Part shown: in pieces, positions 403 to 43,425 of the stretch
Layout of the letters: each line of letters starts with the position of its first letter
Numbering within the stretch: the stretch's first letter is position 1
NCBI GenBank assembly: GCA_027468165.1
Contig: GCA_027468165.1_3951.1
Strand: one strand, 5' to 3'
DNA: 64,000 bases
DNA from: a phage
Translations under genes and position numbers: made by a program
The notes under the pieces: model-generated
What the model was told of the DNA's origin: nothing
Database searches by the model: none
What the model saw: the letters and a program-made list of their open reading frames with translations, nothing else

Positions 403-945
403 ATGAAATGCTTTCACGGTACTACTCAAGAAAACTTCACCAACCTGATTAATAACGGTGATAAGCCATCAGGTGCATGGAATTGTTCGGATATGGACGG
501 CAATTTTTACGTGTATCCAGAAAATAAAATCTATGGCGACGATGAGGAAGAGATAATCTCTGAAGGTATCCAGCAAGCTCTGGGCAATGCCGCTATCACC
601 GCAGCTTTCCAGATGAAAACCCAAAACATTGTTATCTTGGAACTTGATATTCCAGAAGATGAATTAAATGATGATTATTCTTGTGATAATATGGCGAACG
701 TGGCAAGTTTTACAGAATATTTTGATTTAAACTGGATTAAAAAGGTTTACACCACTGAATTTAATGCTATGTTTTCACCATTTTGTCTGCCTTCACTGGA
801 TAACCCGAATTTAAACTATATTGACGAGTCTCTGGAACTTCTCGCTAAAAGCGTTCAACAGTCCGACAGTATTCAAGTTTTTTGTGACATCATGGACACA
901 CTGACGGGAAACATCGCAGAAGAGGATTTAAAGAGTTTTTTCTAA
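403..945 (+). CDS. Hypothetical acidic protein (180 aa)
   Basis: ORF track; preceded by the SD half of the leader cassette (CCTTAAACTAGGAGATTCAAAAATG). Confidence 0.6.
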   Translation: MKCFHGTTQENFTNLINNGDKPSGAWNCSDMDGNFYVYPENKIYGDDEEEIISEGIQQALGNAAITAAFQMKTQNIVILELDIPEDELNDDYSCDNMANVASFTEYFDLNWIKKVYTTEFNAMFSPFCLPSLDNPNLNYIDESLELLAKSVQQSDSIQVFCDIMDTLTGNIAEEDLKSFF

Positions 946-977
946 TAACCTATACAATCACCTTATAAACACTATTC

Positions 978-1000
978 AGCCCCTTGCAGGGGCTTTTAAA
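978..1000 (+). terminator. Intrinsic terminator-like hairpin (AGCCCCT-TGC-AGGGGCT followed by TTTTAAA)
   Basis: GC stem plus T-run immediately after ORF 403-945. Confidence 0.55.
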
Positions 1001-1011
1001 GGGCTTTAATC

Positions 1012-1245
1012 ATGCTTACAACCGTTTACCTTATCCTTTCCATCTGTAATGGTCATTCATGTGATTTTAAAGGTCTCGAGGAGTTTACAGGGAGTAAAGA
1101 AAATACTATTCAGGTTTGCCAGATAGCAAGGCAAGACTACCCCGCCAGTGATGATATACAATGTTATTTTAAGACAGAAGACAGCGACGGCGTTTATTTT
1201 GATAGCGTTGATGGTCAATATGAAATTATCATAGAAAAAGACTAG
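1012..1245 (+). CDS. Hypothetical protein (77 aa)
   Basis: ORF track; weak RBS. Confidence 0.4.
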   Translation: MLTTVYLILSICNGHSCDFKGLEEFTGSKENTIQVCQIARQDYPASDDIQCYFKTEDSDGVYFDSVDGQYEIIIEKD

Positions 1246-1334
1246 ACAAGCCTGATAGAAATCTGTAAATTACTAATCAACGGGGAGGGAATGACCTTCC
1301 CCACTAAGTAAAGCCCTAAACTGGAGTTTTCACA
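1243..1334 (+). promoter_or_regulatory. Early promoter plus leader cassette (copy 2): -35 TAGACA, -10 TAAATT 1266-1271, leader hairpin, SD
   Basis: Near-identical to the copies at 18-111, 2002-2093 and 2599-2689. Confidence 0.5.
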
Positions 1335-1481
1335 ATGTCAAATGCAGTTGAAACGGTTTTTAACAATCCGGTATTTTCAGAGATGATTTTCTCGTTTATC
1401 ATGATGTTACTTGTTAAAACCATGAAAAAGGCCGAAAAATTACACTCAAAGAAAAAAGCTATTGCAAACCGTTTTAAGTAA
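1335..1481 (+). CDS. Small hydrophobic protein (48 aa; below ORF-track size cutoff)
   Basis: ATG placed exactly where the leader cassette predicts; manual translation MSNAVETVFNNPVFSEMIFSFIMMLLVKTMKK... to TAA at 1479-1481. Confidence 0.45.
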   Translation: MSNAVETVFNNPVFSEMIFSFIMMLLVKTMKKAEKLHSKKKAIANRFK

Positions 1482-1529
1482 AGATATAGTATCAATCAAG
1501 CCCACTTCCTAAACTGGAGATTCAAAAAA

Positions 1530-1871
1530 ATGGCTTATGTAACCGTAGTAACCGATAAAGCGGATTCATCTTGGTCAACTCAAGTAAGTGATAAGATGAC
1601 ACCTATGCAGTGCCTAAAATACTTTGAGCAATGGAATAAAGGCGAGGATGTAAGCCCCTTCCAAGTAATGCAGATTATCCATACAGACGACGAAGGGATT
1701 AAAACGGTTTTAAATAGTGAGTACTATGCAACCAGATTTGAGACGAGATGTAAAACGATGAAACTATTACGTGAATCCGGTTACCCTCATATTGCCGCGC
1801 TAATCTGGGATGACTTGCTAAAAAATCAGCGTATCAGTTACGTAAAACCTGAAAAAATATTCATCAGCTAA
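1530..1871 (+). CDS. Hypothetical protein (113 aa)
   Basis: ORF track; preceded by SD half of the leader cassette. Confidence 0.55.
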   Translation: MAYVTVVTDKADSSWSTQVSDKMTPMQCLKYFEQWNKGEDVSPFQVMQIIHTDDEGIKTVLNSEYYATRFETRCKTMKLLRESGYPHIAALIWDDLLKNQRISYVKPEKIFIS

Positions 1872-1903
1872 TCAATAACTTACAAAAAACTTTTAAAAAA
1901 GTG

Positions 1904-1932
1904 TTGACAATACCCCTTGACATTGGTAATGT
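1904..1932 (+). promoter_or_regulatory. Putative sigma70-like promoter (A-tract, TTGACA, 17 bp, TAATGT)
   Basis: Motif AAAAAAGTGTTGACA shared with other promoters in the window. Confidence 0.4.
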
Positions 1933-2001
1933 TGTTCGAGGGGGTTTATCTTAAAGGGATTCACTTAAAAGATTTCTTTAAAGATAAGCTTAAAAAATTG
2001 C

Positions 2002-2093
2002 TTGCAATCAGATATCAAAGCAAGTAAATTACTAATCAACGGGAAGGGAATGACCTTCCCCACTAAACAAAGTCCTAAACTGGAGATTCTAAA
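2002..2093 (+). promoter_or_regulatory. Early promoter plus leader cassette (copy 3): -35 TTGCAA, -10 TAAATT 2025-2030, leader hairpin, SD
   Basis: Repeated cassette. Confidence 0.5.
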
Positions 2094-2624
2094 ATGAACA
2101 AATTTCAAGCTATCAACTATATTCGTTCCGTCAATGTCATGTCAAAGCCTGTAAAAGATACGTATGAATTTCGTTGTAATGGTGTACACTTCGCAACAAT
2201 CACCAAATCAGAAAACGGGGCTTATTACGTTCATCGCCGTAATGTTGCAACCGTTGTAGTCTCTCATTTTATGCAAGCTGTCGCGGAACTTCTCCCGATG
2301 TTTTTGGGTCTTTACTTGGATGAGTGTAAAAACGTTCATAATCACGTTAAAAGCCTTTTAAATAGTTATAAAATGGCTTATGAGCGTTCTATCAAGTCCT
2401 TAAACAAGTTTTACAACGCACCTGAAAATACTGTATCAATGGCCTACGATGTAAATGGTGAGGCGGTGAGTCTCTTTGAAGTGGAAAAAATCAAGCTGTA
2501 CAATTTACTCCCTAACGATTACGCTAAAACCATCGGTGAAGGTTTAACGTTCAATATCAAGAACTTAGAAAAAACTTTAAAAGATATTGAAAAAGACATT
2601 GACGAGACAATCAAAAATCTGTAA
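2094..2624 (+). CDS. Hypothetical protein (176 aa)
   Basis: ORF track; leader cassette upstream. Confidence 0.6.
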   Translation: MNKFQAINYIRSVNVMSKPVKDTYEFRCNGVHFATITKSENGAYYVHRRNVATVVVSHFMQAVAELLPMFLGLYLDECKNVHNHVKSLLNSYKMAYERSIKSLNKFYNAPENTVSMAYDVNGEAVSLFEVEKIKLYNLLPNDYAKTIGEGLTFNIKNLEKTLKDIEKDIDETIKNL

Positions 2625-2689
2625 ATTACTAATCAACGGGAGGGATAACCTCCCAACTAAATAAAACCCTTAAACTAGGAGATTCAAAA
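2599..2689 (+). promoter_or_regulatory. Early promoter plus leader cassette (copy 4): -35 TTGACG, -10 TAAATT 2622-2627, hairpin GGGAGG/CCTCCC, SD
   Basis: Repeated cassette; stem shows compensatory changes relative to the other copies. Confidence 0.55.
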
Positions 2690-2938
2690 ATGGCAACTAT
2701 CCGCGCAATTGTAAATTCTTATGGCTGCTACACTCTGGATGTTAAATTTGATATTGGTGGAACTGATGAATGCTTTTCCTTAGTGAAAACAGTTATCAAG
2801 CAAGTTATCCCAGATTATAACCCTACTGATGACTTCTGGAAAGATGCCGTGAAAGAGGCGTTAAACGATGAATACCATTACCATTACTGGGGTGATTTGA
2901 TTGTATCCCTGTACTACGATAAAAAAGGCACTAACTAA
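2690..2938 (+). CDS. Hypothetical protein (82 aa)
   Basis: ORF track; leader cassette upstream. Confidence 0.55.
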   Translation: MATIRAIVNSYGCYTLDVKFDIGGTDECFSLVKTVIKQVIPDYNPTDDFWKDAVKEALNDEYHYHYWGDLIVSLYYDKKGTN

Positions 2939-2976
2939 TCAACGCAGCGGGGCTAAAATAGCCCCAGATACCTTTA

Positions 2977-3027
2977 AAGCCCCTTTATACTGATTCGATA
3001 GAATCTATCTCATAGGGGCTTTTTTAC
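2977..3027 (+). terminator. Terminator-like hairpin (AAGCCCCT ... AGGGGCTT followed by TTTTTT)
   Basis: 8-bp GC-rich stem with a large loop then T6; downstream of the plus-strand early genes. Confidence 0.45.
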
Positions 3028-3097
3028 GTCCTATCAAATCCCTTCCCTTCCCCTTTCCAGAATCTATCCCACTGATTCGATAGAATCTATCTCATAC
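2990..3097. repeat. 25-bp direct repeat CTGATTCGATAGAATCTATCTCATA (2990-3014 and 3073-3097)
   Basis: Exact duplication read directly. Confidence 0.8.
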
Positions 3098-3396
3098 CTT
3101 AAAAGGCAATAACTTTACAGTTTACCCTATAGCCTTTTATTAAATCAACTTAAATATAAGCCCATAACCCGAAAGGGAAGGGCAACCATTTAAACGCCAT
3201 ATAAAGCCCTATAACGGCCTTATTAACATAACTTAAGGGATTGCATTACCTCACCCTTAAAAGCCCTTTATAAAGCTTTCTAGGGGCTTAAAAGAGCCTT
3301 AAAAGAATCTTATAAGGGTGTAAGCTTTATCATCTCGTTAGTATCTAGTGAATAACTAAAAAGGGCTTGTCAGTGTCTTAAAAGTATGTTATAGGG

Positions 3397-3429
3397 GCTT
3401 AAAAGTTGCTTAAAAGTAGCTTAAAAGTT
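3397..3429. repeat. Tandem 11-bp repeat GCTTAAAAGTW x3
   Basis: Three head-to-tail copies read directly. Confidence 0.8.
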
Positions 3430-3642
3430 ACGTAAATGCTAGCCCCCTTAACATTTTCTTAACAATTTCTTAACAAACCCTACATAGTTATGTTTGTTAG
3501 TAACTTGTTAGCCCCTTGTTAAATCTCTGTTAAAACCATGTAAAAGCCTTGTAAGAACCTTTGGCATAGCCTTTAAAGCCCCTGAAAAGCCCTGTAAGGA
3601 GGTGTCTGTATAGTTGGGGTGTAATTACTAGGGAGAGACTAA

Positions 3643-3683
3643 AAAGGGCTTATAAGGAGCTATAAAGGGCTTTTAAAAGGGCT
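3643..3683. repeat. AAAGGGCT x3 at 22- and 11-bp spacing
   Basis: Read directly. Confidence 0.7.
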
Positions 3684-3779
3684 ATTTAAAAGGTCACTAG
3701 GGATTGGTAACAATACCAATTAAGAGGGAAAGGGAACGATAAGACCAGAGATAGTGACCATGTTAATAGCTTGTTAAAA

Positions 3780-4040
3780 AGGTTAAACACTTGTTAGAAA
3801 CTTGTTAATTATCTTAACAAAATAACTCTTTAAAATTAACTTGTTAGCCCTTGTTAGTCATCTGTTAAGCCTCTGTAAAGACTATTCAGCACTTGTTAGG
3901 ATACTGTTACCCTCTTGTTAAAACTGTTAAGAATCTGTTAAGACCTCTGAAGAGATGTTAAAAGGTTGTAAGAACTGTTAAGAGATTGTTAATGATATTT
4001 TAAAATTCTGCAAAGGGGGTGTTAAGGAGCTGTTAAGGGC
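3780..4040. repeat. Cluster of more than 20 YTGTTAR(G) motifs, many at ~10-11 bp phasing
   Basis: e.g. ACTGTTAAGAATCTGTTAAGACC...ACTGTTAAGAGATTGTTAATG; a second looser cluster at ~4190-4460. Confidence 0.7.
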
Positions 4041-4487
4041 TACCAAGCAGATATACATCTTCTACAGATATTTTTGAGTTCCTTTAAAGACCCTAAAAAA
4101 TGACTTGATAGTTCTATTTTATAAAAAATTTAAAATTCTGAATAATTACCTAGACAGTCTTCTAAAAATACAGGCATAAACAGGCTTATAAGATACCTTG
4201 TTAATACCTTGTTAGACCTTGTGAGATAAGGTCTGTAAAGATATTCCTGTTAAGTTTGTTAAAACAGTCTATATAGAGGCTTAGTAATACCTAGTGAACA
4301 CCTATAGAGGTAACATAGCTAACCTAATGGGTTACTGTTAAGTAACACAGGTAACCTAGAGATTAAGAGGTGTATAGGAGCTTCTAAGAGGGTATAGAGT
4401 GATGGTTAAGGTGATTGTATAGGTTGTTAAGAAGGCTTGTTAGAGGGCTATTTAGAAGGACTATACAGAGGGGCTATTAAGACCACT

Positions 4488-4535
4488 AGATAGATACTAA
4501 GATACTATATAGTACTATATAACTATATATAGAGA
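4488..4535. repeat. AT-rich tract with TACTATATA-type repeats
   Basis: TAGATAGATACTAAGATACTATATAGTACTATATAACTATATATAGAGAG. Confidence 0.6.
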
Positions 4536-4665
4536 GTAAGCTTAAGAAGGTTGTTAAGAAGGGTAGATATTTTATTCACATATGATGGTGACCCAGAGGT
4601 TGGGACAACCGATAAAATTTTATAAAAATTGAAAAGCCCCCAATTAAGGAGGCTCTTAAGATATT

Positions 4666-5259
4666 TTAAACCAGTGTTTCCAGAACTGTCTTCAGTGATG
4701 ACTTGGTTGTCTGATAAAAATGAGTAAATCCATTGTTGTTATCAAATACCAGCATCATGATATCATCTCCATTAATTGGGTACACTCGGATATCATAGTG
4801 AAACCCATTAAAGACAGCAGAACCATTACAGAATGCACTAAAGTCATCCACTGAGATGTACTCTTCATGACCTGTGATTTTTATACAGATACCCTTACTC
4901 GGTCTCTTAGGGTTGATATCTTCCATCACAGACATACTCTGTCCACCAAGAGACACCATAGTGACTACTTTACGGTTCTTCTGTCTAAAGTACATCTTAA
5001 CTTTCTGTAAAGTGTCTTCATAGAACGGATAAGACTTCTCTACAAAGATTCCTTCAAGTGGCTCTTTACCGTTTACAATACCTCTGTTATGACGTACTGC
5101 AAAGATAATTTGTTGGAGCCAGTCAAGATTTTCTTCGGAGAGTGCTTCCCGAATATCATTCCAGTCAAGGACTAGGTAGTTGCCTTCAACCTCTTTTAAG
5201 TTATCTTTTTCCATATCTATCACACCATTATCGTAAAACTTGGTAATCTGGTACTGCAA
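4666..5259 (-). CDS. Hypothetical protein (197 aa)
   Basis: ORF track; first gene of a tightly packed minus-strand block. Confidence 0.5.
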   Translation of the reverse strand: MQYQITKFYDNGVIDMEKDNLKEVEGNYLVLDWNDIREALSEENLDWLQQIIFAVRHNRGIVNGKEPLEGIFVEKSYPFYEDTLQKVKMYFRQKNRKVVTMVSLGGQSMSVMEDINPKRPSKGICIKITGHEEYISVDDFSAFCNGSAVFNGFHYDIRVYPINGDDIMMLVFDNNNGFTHFYQTTKSSLKTVLETLV

Positions 5260-36359: not shown

Positions 36360-36360
<1 letters not shown>

Positions 36361-37829
36361 TGGCAGGATTAACTACAACAGGATTACAAACTCTAAGATA
36401 TCAGGAAATTTTTGATAATATCAAATCAAGACTTCTTAGAGATATTTCACCAAACCTTGACGTTTCTGAAGATAGTCAATTAGGCCTCTTCCTAGCTTCA
36501 ATTGCAAGGTCTTTAGCAGATACTCACGAGATTCTATCAGAAGTCTATGATGGTGGAACAATTGACAAGGCCGAAGGCTTTAACCTTGATGATATTACCG
36601 CTTTAAACGCTGTATATAGGTATGTTGCACAGGCAACAAGAGGTCAGGTGGAGTTTACTGGAACAACTGGTGCTACCATTCCTTCAACAACAAGATTAAG
36701 AAGTACTGCCGGAAACATCTTTTATCCAGTTAACAACATTACCCTTACCCCATCATATTGTGTTGAAGCTGTCCTTGAAGTTAACTCTTTACGAACTGAT
36801 GCAGATTATGTTATTATTATTGATAACGTCATTTTCTCATATAAACCAACCTCATCAGATACAATCACCACACTTCTAACAAAATTAGCAGAAGCTATTA
36901 ATGGTGGTATTGTAGCAAAGGCAGAAGTCATTAATGATGGAGCAGCATTAAAAATCTATAAAGATGAGGGTGATATCATTGCAAGAACAAACCCTATGGT
37001 TGTCACTGCAACAACGTTTCTGACCTTTACAAAAATTACAACTATTTCAGATGTAGTAGCTGAAGAGGTTGGTGCTACCCCTGCTTTAGCTGGTACACTT
37101 ATTGAGATTGAGACAACTGTTGATGGTCTTGACAGTATTTATAACAGATATGACTTAACAACTGGTAGAAACGAAGAAACTGACACAGAACTTAGACAGA
37201 GATATTTAGAGTCCTTAGCAGTTACTGGTGTAGGAACTTTGGATGCAATTGTAGCTGCTGTTAAAAGAGTTCAAGGTGTCTCAGATGCTTCAGGTGTTGA
37301 AAATGATACTGAAGAAACAAACTCAGAAGGTCTCCCACCAAAATCTTTTAAGATTGTTGTAGTTGGCGGTCAAAATGATAATGTTGCTCAAGCAATCTGG
37401 GATACAAAACCTGCTGGTATTAGAGCTTATGGCTCAATTTTTGGTACAGCCCATGATTTAGGTGGTTTAGCACACAATATCTATTTTAGCAGACCAACAC
37501 CAAAATACGCATTTGTTAAGGTCTCTTACTCTCTATATGATGAAGAAAGCTTGACAATCCCTGAAGAGGATATCAGAGACAGTATTGTACAAGGTATTAA
37601 TGCCTACGGAAGAACTCTTAAGGTTGGTAATGATGTTATCCCTAACAGAATCTATGGACATATCTATGACGTAATTAAAGGTATTGAGATTAATGAAGTT
37701 AAAGTAGCATTATCAAATAACCAATCAGTTCCACCTAGTGACGGACAATATACTACAGCAAGAATTACTGTTGACGGTGACCAATATACTGTTTGGGAAA
37801 GCAGCCAGTATACCATCACTAAGGAGTAA
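36360..37829 (+). CDS. Baseplate wedge protein (gpJ-like, 489 aa)
   Basis: Position and size. Confidence 0.5.
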
Positions 37830-37831
37830 TA

Positions 37832-38686
37832 ATGTTTGAAAAGATTGATAGTGTTTATTACAAAACACTTGATGAACGAACTGTAACACAGTTTAAAGAT
37901 AAGTTTATCTACACAAGCATCTTGAAAGCAGTCACTGATGAGTTACAAACGCTAGAGGATGTTTGCTGGCAGATGCACACAGAGAGAAATATCAGGACGT
38001 CAGTAGGCCAACAACTTGATAATATTGGCTCACTGATTAAAGTTCCTAGACCTTTAGGTGCTGATGATGAAACATATAGAGCTATGCTTTATATCCAAAT
38101 CTTCCTAAGACGCTCTGACACTACTCCTACATTCTTGCAAAAAGCAATTATGACACTGTATGGTGCAACTTTCTCTCAGATTTTTGAGCATATTACTCCT
38201 AAGACTGGTGGTATCGTTATCCGTATTAACACCAGAAAAAACGTTCTTGATGCTGCATATACGCTATCAAAGATTTCTGCAACAACCACTGGTTCTGCTG
38301 TTATCTTAAGAGATGTTACTTTAAAGGGGACTGCTTGGACACCTGTAGAGGTTGCTGATTCAGCACTTGCCATTGTTGATGATAAAGAGAACTGGTTTGT
38401 AACTGATGCTAACAGAGGTCTGGTAACAAATAACACTGGTGGCTCTCTGGAGTCTAACCTAGTAGGGAGTCTTGCAGATGCTGGTGTTATTGATGGTTAC
38501 TTTAAGGTTGACAGAACAGCAAACTCACAGAGTGATGATTACATGACTGTAGATAGGTCTAATAAAAGTGGATATTTCATCATTGGTAAAGAAGCTGTTG
38601 CAGGTGGTGCATACGGAATCATGGCTGAGGTTGCACAAATTGTCAAAGGCAGAAAAGATAAATCACAACAAGAAGGAAATTCTTAA
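37832..38686 (+). CDS. Baseplate/tail-fibre attachment protein (284 aa)
   Basis: Position. Confidence 0.45.
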
Positions 38687-38988
38687 TGGCAGTTTTAAAT
38701 TGGTCTACAAATGAAGTGGATACCGATGGTAATCAGTTAAAAGTTTTACCACCACCGGAAATTCAAGAGACAGGTCTTTTAAAGGGTGAGCCTATGGGTA
38801 GGCAGTGGTTCAACTATATTATCAACTACCTGCTGAATAAAGTAAACGGCACTGTTGGTGAAGTTCGCTCATATGCAACTGAGCAACCAGATTTAGTGGC
38901 TAATGGCTGGAATCTGATTAAGTCTGAGACAGGGACTGCATCAACAAGTACAAGAAACCTTTACACATATGAATATGTAGGAGCTTAA
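38686..38988 (+). CDS. Hypothetical tail protein (100 aa)
   Basis: ORF track. Confidence 0.45.
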
Positions 38989-38990
38989 TA

Positions 38991-40166
38991 ATGGCAGTAG
39001 GTGAAATTCAAATTAGTGCCTTGCCACAAGCGGCCTTACCAATTGATTTGAGTGATATCTTCCATCTTAAGCAAGGTGTTGAGGATAAAAGATGTACGCT
39101 TGAACAATTGTTAGCACCTCACGCATCTTTGAGGAATAACCCTCATGGTGTAACTAAATCACAAGTTGGTCTTGATAATGTTATTAACTCTCTACAATTA
39201 GTTGCAGCTAATAACTTGTCAGACATTGTGAATGTTGCTGAGGCAAGAGCGAATCTGCAAATTATGTCTTCAGATGAAGTGAACAGTTTAATTAAGAGAC
39301 ATATCGACGACAAAAGCAACCCACACAATACAACTAAAGCACAGGTTGGGTTAAGTAATGTTCAGAACTGGACAACATCAAACCTGTACAATGAAGATGC
39401 TGATAAGTATGCTACCGCGAGAGCAGTGAATAATTTATACAAAGCTATCCAAGCATCATATCCAGTAGGGACTATTCATCTATCTGTTAACTCTACTAAT
39501 CCATCTACTTACTTGCTTTGTGGGGGTACTTGGGAGTTAGTATCTAAAGGTAAGGCACTAGTTGGTTATGATACAGATTCTAGACCTGTTGGTTCAACGT
39601 TTGGTTCTCAGACTGTAGCATTAACAAATAATAATTTACCGGCGCACACCCACTCTATCTATTTAACAGGTGGTGGCCATACACACTCTGCAAGTGTATC
39701 TATCTCCAGTTTTGATTATGGTTCAAGAAGTACATCAACTTTCGATTATGGTACGAAGGCAACCGATGGTGCTGGTGCTCACACTCACACTTTTAGTGGC
39801 ACGACAAGTAATGCTGGTAACCACAACCATAGAGTACCACTGAGAGGTAATGATAGGAGTGGGTGGAATGCTATTACCGCGTCTGCTGATGCTGGGGTTG
39901 GTAACGCTTCGTATACTGATTTAGCAGGTGCTCACACCCATAGCTTCTCAGGCACAACTGCATCATCTGGTGCTCATAGCCATACTGTTGCAATTGGTGC
40001 TCATAGCCACACTGTTAGTATCGGTTCACACAGTCATACTGGCACTGTTACTGTTTCTAGCTCAGAGCATACGCACTCAGGCACATCTGGCTCTGTTGGT
40101 GGTGGTCAGGCTTTCAGTGTTGAGCAGCCATCTTTTGTAGTATATGTATGGCAGAGAACAGCTTAG
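38991..40166 (+). CDS. Tail fibre protein with His-rich (HxH) C-terminal module
   Basis: Repeated GAHTHS/HSHTV motifs; C-terminus ...AFSVEQPSFVVYVWQRTA paralogous to the end of the next gene. Confidence 0.65.
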   Translation: MAVGEIQISALPQAALPIDLSDIFHLKQGVEDKRCTLEQLLAPHASLRNNPHGVTKSQVGLDNVINSLQLVAANNLSDIVNVAEARANLQIMSSDEVNSLIKRHIDDKSNPHNTTKAQVGLSNVQNWTTSNLYNEDADKYATARAVNNLYKAIQASYPVGTIHLSVNSTNPSTYLLCGGTWELVSKGKALVGYDTDSRPVGSTFGSQTVALTNNNLPAHTHSIYLTGGGHTHSASVSISSFDYGSRSTSTFDYGTKATDGAGAHTHTFSGTTSNAGNHNHRVPLRGNDRSGWNAITASADAGVGNASYTDLAGAHTHSFSGTTASSGAHSHTVAIGAHSHTVSIGSHSHTGTVTVSSSEHTHSGTSGSVGGGQAFSVEQPSFVVYVWQRTA

Positions 40167-40176
40167 TTTCTTTACA

Positions 40177-40199
40177 GGGGCTTTATAGCCCCTTTTAAG
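40177..40199 (+). terminator. Intrinsic terminator (GGGGCT-TTATA-GCCCC followed by TTTTAAG)
   Basis: Read directly. Confidence 0.7.
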
Positions 40200-40212
40200 A
40201 GGAAAATTTATA

Positions 40213-42744
40213 ATGGCAGATTACAAATTGAGTCAATTAAACTCAATCGACACAATCCGTTCAGATGACCTTCTTCATGTCAGAGTTAAAAAGAGACCTG
40301 AAATGCTGGGTGATGAAGACCGTCGAATGACCTATCAAGACTTTTTAGCATCTTTTAAGCTTGAAAGATTTGTTCAGATTGCTGGTAGTAATATGACAGG
40401 TGACTTAGGGATTGTTAAGTTACTTTATGGTGGTAAGGCAGTCTTTGACCCAACAGGCTCTTCTGAGATTACTATTGGGGATGTTTTAAAGACTTTTAAA
40501 ATCAACGCAAGCGGCCTTAAACTAACTATTGCAGATGCTTCAAGGTCGGCAACTGTTTATCATACTCTGAATAAGCCAAGTCCTAATGAACTTGGGATGA
40601 GAACTAATGAAGAGAATGATGCAAGATATGCAAGGCTTGCTATTACAAACACATTCTCTGGAACTCAGAACATTCAAGGTGATGCTAACTTACTTCGCCT
40701 TAGAAACCAAAATGCAAACAAAGCACAATATATTGAAGGTGTAAACCTAGATGGTTCGGCTAGATGGTGGGTTGGTATTGGTAGTAATGGCTCTGACGAA
40801 GTAAAGCTGTACAATAACAAATACAACACAGCAGTGATTGTTGCAAACAATATCTCTGTGAGTAGGTCTTTAGCAATCACTGGTCAAGTTCAACCATCAG
40901 ATTTCTCTAACTTAGATGCTAGATACTTTACTCAGACAGTTGCTAATCAGAGATTTGCACAGTTAGCTGCTAATAACAATTTCACTGGTACTAACACTTT
41001 TAGCAGAAATCTAACTATCATTAGTGACAGTGCTGCTTTAAGGTTGAAAAATGCAACATCTAGTTCCCTATTTATTCAGGGAGTTAACTCTCAGAATGCC
41101 AACAGATGGTATGTAGGGAACGGTGATAACACCGCCTCTGTGTTACTACACAACTATGTATACAATTCAAATATTAGGCTCGATAATGGATATATCTCAG
41201 TCAACCAGAATTTCAGAATCACTGGTCAAGTTCAACCTTCTGATTGGACTAACATCGACTCTAGATACATTCCGGTAGGAACTTTGAGTAATCTTGCTAA
41301 ACTAAGTGATGCAAACACTTTCAGGTCTTCACAAGTAATTCTCAAAGATGAACTATCGTTACAGCTAAGAAACACTGTTCAGGATAAGCCACTATACCTT
41401 GCTGGTTATAACGCTGATAATGTGAGAAGGTGGTTCATCGGGAATGGGGAGCCAGCAGACCCAACTAAACTCATTATTTACAATGATAGGACTGGTACTG
41501 CTATTTTCATGCAAGATGACTTCTTGCTGAACAAAACAGTCAGAATTGCTGGTCAAGTACAACCTTCTGATTGGACTAACATTGATGGTCGATACTATAA
41601 CAAGTCATCAGCAGATAATAGGTATCTAAGAGTAAGAAGCACTGGATTTAACACCAGCGGTGTGGATAAATGGGCTAAGATTGCAACTGTCACCATGCCA
41701 CAAACAACATCAACAGCAGTAATCGAGTTGTTTGGTGGGGCTGGGTTCAACTTTGGTGCATATGACCAAGCCTGTAAAACAGAAATTGTTCTTAGAACAG
41801 GTAATAACAACCCAAAAGGATTAAATGTTGTTGCATGGAAAAACTCACCAAATGGTGTTGTGACGGAAATTGGGTATGTTAACACATCTGGCGATAATTA
41901 TGACATCTATTGCAAAGCTACTCGTTATCAAAATGCTACGACAGCTAGGGTTCAGTCATCAGATAATGCAACAGTACAACTGTTTGCAACCCCAGAGACA
42001 TACGATAATGCTCCAGATGACTATGTTGCTGGGACAATTGCTTATTATTATACTAGTCTCTTGAAACCAACCCCTTCAGATATTGGTGCATACACTAAAG
42101 GAGAAACTGACCAGAAGATTGCACAGGCAATTAGTGACTCTACAGACCTGAATAAAATCTACCCAGTTGGTATTGTAACGTGGTTTAACAGTAATGTTGA
42201 CCCTAACACAGCGTTGCCTGGGTTAACTTGGACGTATCTGAACAATGGTGTTGGTAGAACTATCAGAATCGCAGCAGCAAATGGTTCAGATGTTGCTACA
42301 ACTGGTGGTTCAGATTCTGTAACGTTATCTGTTGGTAACTTACCTTCACACACGCATAGTTTCTCTGCTACCACGTCGTCGTTTGATTACGGCACTAAAA
42401 CCACGAATAACACCGGGGCGCATACGCACAGTGTGAGCGGTACAGCCGCAAGTGCCGGAAACCATACTCATAGTGTCAAAGGCGCATCAGCAGAAAGACG
42501 GTACACATCAAGTGGGTCAACAAATGAGGTAGTGGCTGCGGTCAATATGAATACAAGTGCTGCAGGAGCGCACACTCATAGTGTCAGCGGCACAGCTGCA
42601 TCTGCAGGTGCTCACGCACATACTGTCGGTATTGGTGCTCACACCCATACAGTTAGTGGTAACACTGGTGGTACAGGTTCTGGTTCAGCATTTAGTGTTA
42701 CTAACCAGTTCTACAAGTTGATGGCTTGGGTAAGAACTGCTTAA
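40213..42744 (+). CDS. Long tail fibre protein (843 aa) with three internal repeats and His-rich C-terminal module
   Basis: Repeats ITGQVQPSD(F/W)(S/T)N(L/I)D(A/S/G)RY; C-terminal HxH module shared with 38991-40166. Confidence 0.7.
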   Translation: MADYKLSQLNSIDTIRSDDLLHVRVKKRPEMLGDEDRRMTYQDFLASFKLERFVQIAGSNMTGDLGIVKLLYGGKAVFDPTGSSEITIGDVLKTFKINASGLKLTIADASRSATVYHTLNKPSPNELGMRTNEENDARYARLAITNTFSGTQNIQGDANLLRLRNQNANKAQYIEGVNLDGSARWWVGIGSNGSDEVKLYNNKYNTAVIVANNISVSRSLAITGQVQPSDFSNLDARYFTQTVANQRFAQLAANNNFTGTNTFSRNLTIISDSAALRLKNATSSSLFIQGVNSQNANRWYVGNGDNTASVLLHNYVYNSNIRLDNGYISVNQNFRITGQVQPSDWTNIDSRYIPVGTLSNLAKLSDANTFRSSQVILKDELSLQLRNTVQDKPLYLAGYNADNVRRWFIGNGEPADPTKLIIYNDRTGTAIFMQDDFLLNKTVRIAGQVQPSDWTNIDGRYYNKSSADNRYLRVRSTGFNTSGVDKWAKIATVTMPQTTSTAVIELFGGAGFNFGAYDQACKTEIVLRTGNNNPKGLNVVAWKNSPNGVVTEIGYVNTSGDNYDIYCKATRYQNATTARVQSSDNATVQLFATPETYDNAPDDYVAGTIAYYYTSLLKPTPSDIGAYTKGETDQKIAQAISDSTDLNKIYPVGIVTWFNSNVDPNTALPGLTWTYLNNGVGRTIRIAAANGSDVATTGGSDSVTLSVGNLPSHTHSFSATTSSFDYGTKTTNNTGAHTHSVSGTAASAGNHTHSVKGASAERRYTSSGSTNEVVAAVNMNTSAAGAHTHSVSGTAASAGAHAHTVGIGAHTHTVSGNTGGTGSGSAFSVTNQFYKLMAWVRTA

Positions 42745-42822: not shown

Positions 42823-43020
42823 ATGCCTACAATCCTAGCAATTCTTCTAAAAAATCTAGGTAGCTTCTTCTGGAAACTTATTTTATCCCTTCTAAGTGAA
42901 TACATGATTGAGAAAGTGTTCTTTAGGCTTGCAAGATACCTTGCGAGTAAAACAGACACACCTATTGATGATGAGTTCGTAGATAACTTAGAAAAAGCTT
43001 TTAAGGGGGAGAATAAATGA
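42823..43020 (+). CDS. Small membrane protein, holin-like (65 aa)
   Basis: N-terminal hydrophobic helix, charged C-terminus; call is tentative. Confidence 0.4.
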   Translation: MPTILAILLKNLGSFFWKLILSLLSEYMIEKVFFRLARYLASKTDTPIDDEFVDNLEKAFKGENK

Positions 43021-43388
43021 AGTGGCTAGAGGAAGCTTTTAAAAATAATATTGGTGCAATTGTAGTTGGTATTTTTAGTGTTATCGGAATGTATACCACG
43101 ATGCAAGTTTCAAGTGGTAAACAAGAAGTGTCTGTCTCAACAAAGTTACAACAGTTGGATAATTACACAAGTAGTAACTATTCAGCTATTCGTGATTTAC
43201 AGTCTGACATGAGACTTATTCAGTTAGGGATGGAGAACCAGAAAGTTCAGTTAGAGAATGTTAAGGGTGAGAACGCAAAACTTACCAAAACTCTTGATAA
43301 ATTCTCTGACAGTGTGAATAATCTGGCCCAATCAGTATCAGCCCTCCAAGCTATTACTGAGAAGAACACAAAGAATACTGAAAAGTAA
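43017..43388 (+). CDS. Membrane-anchored coiled-coil protein (123 aa; spanin-like or lysis accessory)
   Basis: N-terminal TM (IGAIVVGIFSVIGMY) then heptad-like region. Confidence 0.4.
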   Translation: MKWLEEAFKNNIGAIVVGIFSVIGMYTTMQVSSGKQEVSVSTKLQQLDNYTSSNYSAIRDLQSDMRLIQLGMENQKVQLENVKGENAKLTKTLDKFSDSVNNLAQSVSALQAITEKNTKNTEK

Positions 43389-43393
43389 AGTTT

Positions 43394-43425
43394 AAGGCTC
43401 CTTTTTACGGGAGCCTTTTTTGTTT
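43394..43425. terminator. Bidirectional intrinsic terminator (AAGGCTCC-TTTTTAC-GGGAGCCTT plus T-run)
   Basis: Between convergent genes ending at 43388 (+) and 43425 (-). Confidence 0.8.

Follow-up and report, generated by a model that had tools for sequence, protein, structure and literature searches.

Two Tail-Fibre Genes of a Felixounavirus

A stretch of 64,000 nucleotides (nt) of a phage contig (GCA_027468165.1_3951.1, GenBank assembly GCA_027468165.1), referred to below as the window, was analyzed with respect to two adjacent genes, a short tail fibre gene (38991..40166, 391 amino acids, aa) and a long tail fibre gene (40213..42744, 843 aa), which, like all the fibre features given below, lie on the plus strand. 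A sequence-only reading had proposed two tail-fibre genes here, and both were recovered as open reading frames (ORFs) with exactly those ends, with the short fibre matching the PHROG tail-fibre family phrog_2097 (1.1e-135) and the long fibre matching phrog_4277 (E = 0). The two genes are orthologues of gp26 and gp27 of Bas63 (Escherichia phage JohannRWettstein), gp76 and gp77 of Felix O1, and gp82 and gp83 of wV8, respectively. Upstream, the structural module shares ~97% nt identity with many Felixounavirus genomes, and the gene order of the window is that of wV8, Felix O1 and Bas63, gene by gene; therefore, by its sequence, the window derives from a Felix O1-like myovirus of the genus Felixounavirus.

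The short fibre is 95–97% identical to the wV8 and fBSPA4 proteins and 75% identical to Bas63 gp26, with the same synteny, and its orthologues extend beyond the genus to phages of Erwinia, Pectobacterium, Yersinia and Hafnia, at 41–47% identity. The long fibre shares 62% identity with Bas63 gp27 and finds its best match in the phage collection at only 79.6%, and it is identical to a public protein (P0001), labelled hypothetical, on an 87.6-kb contig of an Escherichia coli assembly. Both fibre genes are labelled hypothetical in many Felixounavirus records. The N-terminal rod of the short fibre carries the motif NPHxxTKxQVGLxNV twice, at aa 50–64 (39138–39182) and aa 110–124 (39318–39362), and this stretch alone matches many otherwise unrelated PHROG fibre families, including proteins of jumbo phages and of phages of Gram-positive bacteria.

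The Shared C-Terminal Module and Its HxH Motifs

The C-termini of the two fibres were found to be clearly related. BLASTP aligned residues 157–342 of the short fibre with 650–814 of the long fibre (E = 3e-29, 40% identity), and the profile–profile comparison by hhalign joined residues 152–391 to 645–843 (E = 3e-33). Smith–Waterman scores against composition-preserving shuffles gave z = 25.3 for the whole module and 19.0 for its histidine-rich part, with the C-terminal tail (AFSV...VRTA) reaching 10.2 and the collar 5.6, and therefore a composition rich in His, Gly, Ser and Thr cannot account for the module. The similarity claimed for the two C-termini is thus significant by all three measures, but the length of ~100 aa first given to the shared module does not stand; it spans ~240 aa in the short fibre and ~200 aa in the long one, about twice that length, because the collar domain ahead of the histidine-rich part is included. 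No similarity was detected between the N-terminal parts of the two fibres (z = 1.8; no hhalign match), in agreement with the Bas63 paper (PMC12609058), in which the baseplate-binding N-termini of the fibres are structurally conserved without apparent sequence conservation; the models have predicted local distance difference test (pLDDT) values <50 in these parts.

In the short fibre, the module begins with a collar resembling T4 gp10 and domain D10 of gp37 (aa ~152–215; 39444..39635), which matches PF21939 Gp10_C at 68.6 bits against a cutoff of 27, as well as T4 gp10 (PDB 2FKK, 5HX2) and the collar of the T4 gp37 tip (PDB 2XGF). It is followed by a needle (aa 216–365; 39636..40085) that aligns with T4 gp37 882–1009, and by a C-terminal strand (aa 366–391; 40086..40163), ending in ...GQAFSVEQPSFVVYVWQRTA, which aligns with T4 gp37 1010–1026 and would return to the collar. 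In the long fibre, the collar with the first HxH box (aa 645–719; 42145..42369) aligns with the short-fibre collar by hhalign, and the C-terminal strand (aa 813–843; 42648..42741), ending in ...GSAFSVTNQFYKLMAWVRTA, aligns with the C-terminus of T4 gp37. Both of these long-fibre segments are Felixounavirus-specific, and across the 120 long-fibre variants compared from public data, the collar and first HxH box show >90% identity and the C-terminal strand ~100% conservation.

Both fibres match the T4 gp37 tip, a structure that was reportedly determined by Bartual et al. in 2010, with values of 2.7e-26 for the short fibre (aa 145–362), 5.9e-17 for the long fibre (aa 701–822) and 1.5e-22 for the long-fibre profile. 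The lambda Stf protein (orf-314) also matches both fibres (2e-29 and 1e-22). Pfam PF03335 Phage_fiber (GxHxH) was detected in the long fibre (33.2 bits against a cutoff of 20), with none reported for the short fibre, and the NCBIfam scan returned no model for either. In T4, gp37 is divided into a collar (811–881 and 1010–1026), a stem (882–931 and 960–1009) and a tip (932–959) (Islam et al. 2019, PMC6957217). Its needle holds seven iron ions on the HxH histidines, one ion per trimer motif, replacement of the iron-binding histidines by alanine abolishes plaque formation, and the tip residues bind lipopolysaccharide (LPS) and OmpC (PMC6957217).

The HxH motifs of the two fibres follow the T4 spacing closely. 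T4 gp37 has intervals of 14 (915–929), 37 (929–966), 14 (966–980), 9 (980–989) and 9 (989–998) residues, and the short fibre repeats them exactly, with 14 (264–278), 37 (278–315), 14 (315–329), 9 (329–338) and 9 (338–347), while the long fibre shows 14 (737–751), 36 (751–787), 14 (787–801) and 9 (801–810). The short fibre carries HxH at 219, 230, 264 and 278 on the ascending strand and at 315, 329, 338, 347 and 360 on the descending strand, that is, one additional motif per strand relative to T4 (230 and 360), giving nine. The long fibre, with motifs at 713, 737, 751, 787, 801 and 810, has one descending HxH fewer and a shorter ascending stretch, giving six. Nine motifs were observed in 55 of the 69 short-fibre homologues, which makes this the majority state. 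The HxH histidines are invariant or nearly so in 60–61 homologues, with the segment between the two strands hypervariable; in the short fibre, this tip (aa ~281–312) is the most variable segment of the protein, and its DNA found no match when searched in E. coli genomes. The AFSV...VRTA tails of both fibres align with NIAFNYIVRLA of T4 gp37 (1010–1026), the strand that returns to the collar. The histidine-rich module had been read as a metal-coordinating tip of the kind found in some myovirus fibres, and its homology to 2XGF, where HxH motifs coordinate iron, supports that reading; by the same homology, both fibres are predicted to form trimers and to bind metal through their HxH motifs.

A module common to neighbouring genes might also have arisen by recent duplication or gene conversion between them, rather than through two long-separate lineages sharing one tip fold. 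The fibre genes are indeed adjacent on the same strand and have repeated HxH-coding DNA in common, the best stretch being 96 nt at 76% identity. However, the proteins are just 40–44% identical in the common module, each gene has its own orthologues genus-wide (and the short fibre also in the phages of the other hosts named above), and the long-fibre cassette described below is nearer to T-even and prophage genes (92–96% nt identity) than to the short fibre (76%), so that we regard a recent duplication as highly improbable.

The Long-Fibre Needle and Tip Cassette

Between the Felixounavirus-specific collar and C-terminal strand, the long fibre contains a cassette of 278 nt (aa 720–812; 42370..42647) that holds the distal needle, the tip proper (aa ~754–786; 42472–42570) and five of the six HxH motifs. 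This cassette is 96.4% nt-identical to gp37 of the T-even Mosigvirus vB_EcoM_G2285 and 91.7% nt-identical to the prophage gene stfR of E. coli 2014C-3061, and it matches prophage stf genes in 1,946 of 5,426 complete E. coli genomes, as well as lambdoid side tail fibres. A megablast search of 50,697 phage records returned no other Felixounavirus, and among the 120 Felixounavirus long fibres this type of tip occurs only once. The tip had appeared to be an orphan when a 45-aa query found no match in an index of 5.8 billion proteins, but the tblastn and megablast matches in T-even phage, lambdoid phages and E. coli rule this out. The homology begins right past the first HxH box and stops within the last one. 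Comparison with related fibres, suggested as a way of detecting module exchange, was therefore strongly positive, through this cassette common to T-even phages and prophages and through the allele mosaic described below, and the long fibre appears to have acquired its distal needle and tip recently from the T4/lambda Stf fibre pool.

The GC content at third codon positions (GC3) is 41% in the cassette and 28–31% in its flanks and in the equivalent region of the short fibre. Overall GC is 53% in the cassette, 54% in the entire stfR gene and 41% in the T-even gene, so the cassette is equally foreign in the T-even gene and here, which points to a prophage-like origin as the probable direction of transfer. 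Near-identity of this kind could also be sought in purifying selection, or in convergence on a constrained fold, instead of horizontal transfer, and the segment is both repetitive and structurally constrained. That explanation is scarcely credible, since the 96.4% identity includes synonymous sites, long fibres of the same fold from other Felixounaviruses diverge strongly in this segment and give zero megablast matches, and the GC3 of the cassette departs from that of its surroundings.

The few differences within the cassette are concentrated at the tip. Relative to G2285, 10 nt differ, of which 7 change an amino acid, all 7 lying in the tip (aa 756–779), with 0 synonymous changes there; relative to stfR, the tip accounts for 19 of 23 differences. 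Such clustering is consistent with diversifying selection on a receptor-contact surface. In addition, 17 of the 120 Felixounavirus long fibres (including P0065, P0104, P0039 and P0002) have a tip 60–90% identical to T4 gp37 929–968, the OmpC/LPS-binding segment; therefore, tip exchange of this type recurs, and by this similarity some Felixounaviruses may use T4-like receptors. On the E. coli 2014C-3061 chromosome (L013, locus 503-5119), a recombinase-family gene comes next after the prophage stfR–tfa pair, an arrangement reminiscent of invertible tail-fibre segments, which might offer the tip pool a further route of diversification.

The position of the cassette boundaries bears on the role of the HxH boxes, which might serve mainly as DNA anchors for tip-swapping homologous recombination and not as metal sites in these fibres. 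The boundaries of the imported cassette fall just past the first HxH box and within the last one, conserved boxes surround a hypervariable tip in all 120 long fibres, and Tetart et al., as cited, place exchanges within conserved adhesin motifs. On the other hand, the histidines are invariant even where neighbouring codons differ, and their spacing is as in T4, where they bind iron and alanine substitutions abolish plaques. The two roles are compatible, so anchoring is an addition more than a rival, and the version of it that dispenses with metal binding is unlikely.

Shaft Repeats and Mosaicism of the Long Fibre

Three internal repeats of ~100 aa with the signature ITGQVQPSDF/WxNxDxRY had been noticed in the long fibre, and they were borne out by a hidden Markov model (HMM), by DNA copies and by Pfam. 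The repeats occupy aa 126–237, 240–351 and 352–460 (40588..41592), are 109–112 aa in length and 37–44% identical in pairs, and each consists of a helix and a beta-domain and closes with the invariant linker ITGQVQPSD[FW]xNxDxRY. The HMM built from them finds exactly three copies in the long fibre and zero in the short fibre, the DNA shows in-register copies at 342 and 327 nt spacing, and PF20744 gp37_trimer gives three matches (E = 1.5e-66, 220.9 bits against a cutoff of 21.7). The beta-domains reach pLDDT 65–90 in the monomer model. A fourth shaft beta-domain (aa ~476–629; 41638..42099), delimited by PHROG matches over those residues, is common to the distal shafts of T-even gp37, with 30–42% identity to T2/T4-like gp37 by tblastn across aa ~446–637 and pLDDT 65–85.

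Substantial variation in these modules was observed among the 120 long fibres. Residues 1–140 and 621–718 show >90% identity in every pair, whereas the pairwise identities of the three repeats and the tip are bimodal, at either ~20–40% or 70–100%, and the variants are therefore discrete alleles and not the product of gradual drift. With allele types defined at 70% identity, repeat 1 has 9 types, repeat 2 has 13, repeat 3 has 11, the fourth domain has 2 and the tip has 14; these occur in 84 module combinations, and every module pair passed the four-gamete test. The repeat units were also cut at the invariant GQVQPSD linker, independently of the alignment. The repeat-1 and repeat-2 types of the window occupy positions 2 and 3 in P0083 (Salmonella phage DaR-2019a), and shaft units 2 and 3 of P0070 are identical. 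By these sequence comparisons, the shaft repeats are separate cassettes whose position differs from phage to phage, and the position changes in P0083 and P0070 imply register-shifting recombination at the GQVQPSD linker. The Bas63 authors described the shaft variability as "unexpected" and offered three explanations, recombination not being among them (PMC12609058).

Search for a Fibre Chaperone

A gp38/Tfa assembly gene lies directly 3′ of the fibre gene in both G2285 (L014) and the E. coli prophage, and a downstream Tfa/gp38 is a constant feature of the T4/lambda receptor-binding protein (RBP) family (Magaziner & Salmond 2022, PMC9659904). We searched the 534 ORFs of the 64-kb window, outside which ~24 kb of the genome lies, by tblastn with four chaperones and by HMM, and found no gp38/Tfa gene (best E = 0.38–0.47); cross-family positive controls gave values from 1e-15 to 1e-128. 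None was found at the fibre loci of seven other Felixounaviruses either. Either the Felixounavirus collar and C-terminus fold without help of the gp38/Tfa type, or another factor serves.

One way to account for the missing gene is that the AFSV...VRTA tail is itself an intramolecular chaperone, cleaved after trimerisation as in endosialidases or the T5 L-shaped fibre. The tail is ~100% conserved in the genus, which together with the failure to find a separate chaperone gene would fit such a role. However, neither Peptidase_S74 nor any other chaperone domain appeared in the Pfam, PHROG and NCBIfam scans, the tail has only ~20–25 aa, and it aligns with T4 gp37 1010–1026, a segment that the crystal structure retains within the collar, so that cleavage is very unlikely. 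The two small ORFs 3′ of the long fibre (65 aa, 42823–43020; 123 aa, 43017–43388) were also considered as tip-specific chaperones. They have hydrophobic N-termini with predicted membrane segments, the 123-aa product also with a coiled-coil-like segment, and their identity to Bas63 gp28 and gp29 is 100% and 95%, respectively, despite wholly different fibre tips; since they stay constant while the tips differ, a tip-specific chaperone role is unlikely.

Gene Neighbourhood

Upstream of the fibres, the plus strand encodes baseplate wedge 2 (489 aa, Baseplate_J, PF04865) and wedge 1 (284 aa) at 36360..38686, with 95% and 85% identity to Bas63 gp23 and gp24, respectively, followed by the long-fibre platform (100 aa; 38686..38988), which is the orthologue of Bas63 gp25 at 88% identity. 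The 46-nt gap between the two fibre genes contains a terminator-like hairpin, GGGGCT-TTAT-AGCCCC followed by TTTT (40177..40196, plus strand), read from the sequence. The same site in wV8 is annotated as a Rho-independent terminator, while a consensus terminator scan left the hairpin under its threshold and did not flag it. The hairpin might lower the expression of the long fibre relative to the short one.

The second of the small downstream ORFs is labelled holin in some records; according to the genome paper of Felix O1, no holin–lysin cassette was found in that phage (PMC3185647). Another terminator-like hairpin follows the two small ORFs (43394–43417), and beyond them lie thymidylate synthase (td) and dihydrofolate reductase (frd) on the opposite strand. 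ORFs of 60–96 aa were also detected in other frames inside the fibre genes, several on the minus strand and one on the plus strand at 39928–40140; the latter, inside the histidine-rich region, encodes a low-complexity peptide rich in Leu and Val. Such out-of-frame ORFs most likely arise from the repetitive codons and do not represent genes.

Comparison with Known Fibre Systems

Among the closest known systems is that of Bas63, a member of the same genus, in which cryo-electron microscopy (cryo-EM) revealed a 430-Å short fibre, gp26, on wedge 2 and a 630-Å long fibre, gp27, on a trimer of the platform protein gp25 (Sci Adv 2025, PMC12609058). Each of the Bas63 fibres comprises a collar, an HxH needle and a T4 gp37-like head, both tips vary across the genus, and in the long fibre helical turns lie between the beta-helix domains, as they do in T4 gp34 (PMC12609058). 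The window shares with Bas63 the order wedge 2, wedge 1, platform, short fibre, long fibre, two small ORFs, td and frd, and in both phages the long fibre carries six HxH motifs and has helices between the beta-domains of its shaft. Unlike Bas63, the short fibre here has nine HxH motifs where that of Bas63 has seven, and the long fibre is 59 aa longer, has a fourth beta-domain of another allele and carries a tip that is both different and imported. The Bas63 paper counts five beta-helix domains, whereas the sequence methods used here detect only three homologous repeats. In the GenBank record of Bas63 (MZ501086), bas63_0026 is labelled "long tail fiber protein" and bas63_0027 "tail fiber protein", which is the reverse of the cryo-EM assignment.

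In Felix O1, the C-termini of gp76 and gp77 resemble T4 gp37, and gp77 was detected in virions (2010, PMC3185647). The short fibre is 74% identical to Felix O1 gp76, with a different tip (33% over aa 271–330), and the long fibre differs from gp77 in repeat 3, the fourth beta-domain and the tip. With T4 gp37 (2XGF), the fibres have in common the collar, needle and tip topology, the HxH spacing, the returning C-terminal strand and the placement of the tip between the third and fourth T4-equivalent HxH. They differ from it in a divergent, Felixounavirus-specific collar and C-terminal strand, in having nine or six HxH motifs against seven, in that no gp38 was found, and in their attachment, as T4 gp37 is the distal half of a four-protein fibre and the fibres here would attach directly to the baseplate. 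The T4/lambda RBP family (PMC9659904) is defined by ~215 aa of C-terminal homology that include the collar (YPIGAPIPWPSD...) and NIAFNYIVRLA, whereas in the long fibre this homology is limited to aa 720–812 (92–96% nt identity).

The shaft repeats match residues 48–117 of T7 gp17 (PDB 4A0T) in sequence (~1e-4 to 5e-6) and fold (~4e-4), and T4 gp34 (4UXE/5NXH) in fold (~3e-3); the fold matches are weak, with ~12% identity and a low-confidence monomer model, and they agree with the sequence matches and the Bas63 paper. Sf14, a Shigella phage of the Ounavirinae, has two fibres retracted along the tail, the longer with a T4 gp37-like distal tip; these are single-protein fibres, and no homologues of Mu-type chaperones were found in its genome (Commun Biol 2025, PMC11821841). 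Unlike the phage studied here, Sf14 belongs to a different genus, and the receptor-binding-like domain of its shorter fibre is placed mid-fibre.

Proposed Fibre Architecture and Its Implications

Taken together, it is highly probable that the region encodes two trimeric receptor-binding fibres of a Felixounavirus, with metal-stapled tips of the T4 gp37 type and evolution by cassettes. In the architecture that we propose, the short fibre would attach through its N-terminus to baseplate wedge 2, and the long fibre through the platform protein encoded just upstream, which would in turn bind wedge 1. The shaft of the long fibre would be built of three homologous units of a helix and a beta-domain, and then the fourth beta-domain. 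Both fibres would end in a collar, a six-stranded intertwined beta needle in which each chain runs out and back, and a small tip at the turn that would contact the host receptor. At each HxH, two histidines from each of three chains would form one octahedral metal site, occupied by iron in T4; with one site per HxH layer, nine sites are predicted in the short-fibre needle and six in the long. Cassette exchange would act on highly divergent modules flanked by invariant linker or HxH-box sequences. The receptor for the genus is most likely an LPS structure, the LPS dependence of the genus being known from the literature.

Several results weigh against this architecture. The AlphaFold2 monomer models of both fibres are poor (pLDDT 66.5 and 54.5, predicted template modelling score 0.29), and Foldseek with the short-fibre model returned nothing at E < 1e-3, its long hairpin drawing spurious matches to pore-forming toxins. 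The long-fibre collar scores 21.8 bits against PF21939 Gp10_C, under the cutoff of 27, and the predicted metal sites are carried over from T4 gp37 by homology. The tips of T4 gp37 and lambda Stf need gp38/Tfa for assembly and none is detectable in the window, and LPS as the receptor is uncertain because T4/lambda-type tips can also bind the porin OmpC.

A wider reading joins these observations, and we advance it tentatively, as a possibility that falls somewhat short of an even chance. The cassette would have moved very recently among three phage groups that are unrelated to one another, a virulent Felixounavirus, a T-even Mosigvirus and lambdoid prophages, and the amino acid changes after transfer would be restricted to the tip. 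Chaperone dependence would map to the collar and C-terminal part and not to the HxH needle, so that Felixounavirus collars would act as chaperone-independent scaffolds for T4/lambda tips, with the shaft repeats as position-swappable cassettes recombining at the invariant linker.

The architecture of two fibres with T4-like tips is already published for Felix O1 in 2010 (PMC3185647) and for Bas63 in 2025 (PMC12609058). Added here are a tip cassette recently exchanged across families, shaft cassettes that swap positions and the failure to find a chaperone gene, which together make a modest addition within classical tail-fibre mosaicism. If true, recombination at the linker would explain the shaft variability that the Bas63 authors had not expected. 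The cassette also gives the exact junctions of a naturally used specificity swap (left, SHTHSFSA|TTSSFDYG; right, GIGAHTH|TV), and suggests that T4/lambda-type tips could be displayed on the long fibres of Felixounaviruses without the cognate chaperone, which is relevant when the host range of Felix O1-like phages is engineered for therapy or biocontrol. For the biology of the genus, a strictly virulent phage would appear to take its receptor-binding tip from a pool common to the resident prophages of its host.

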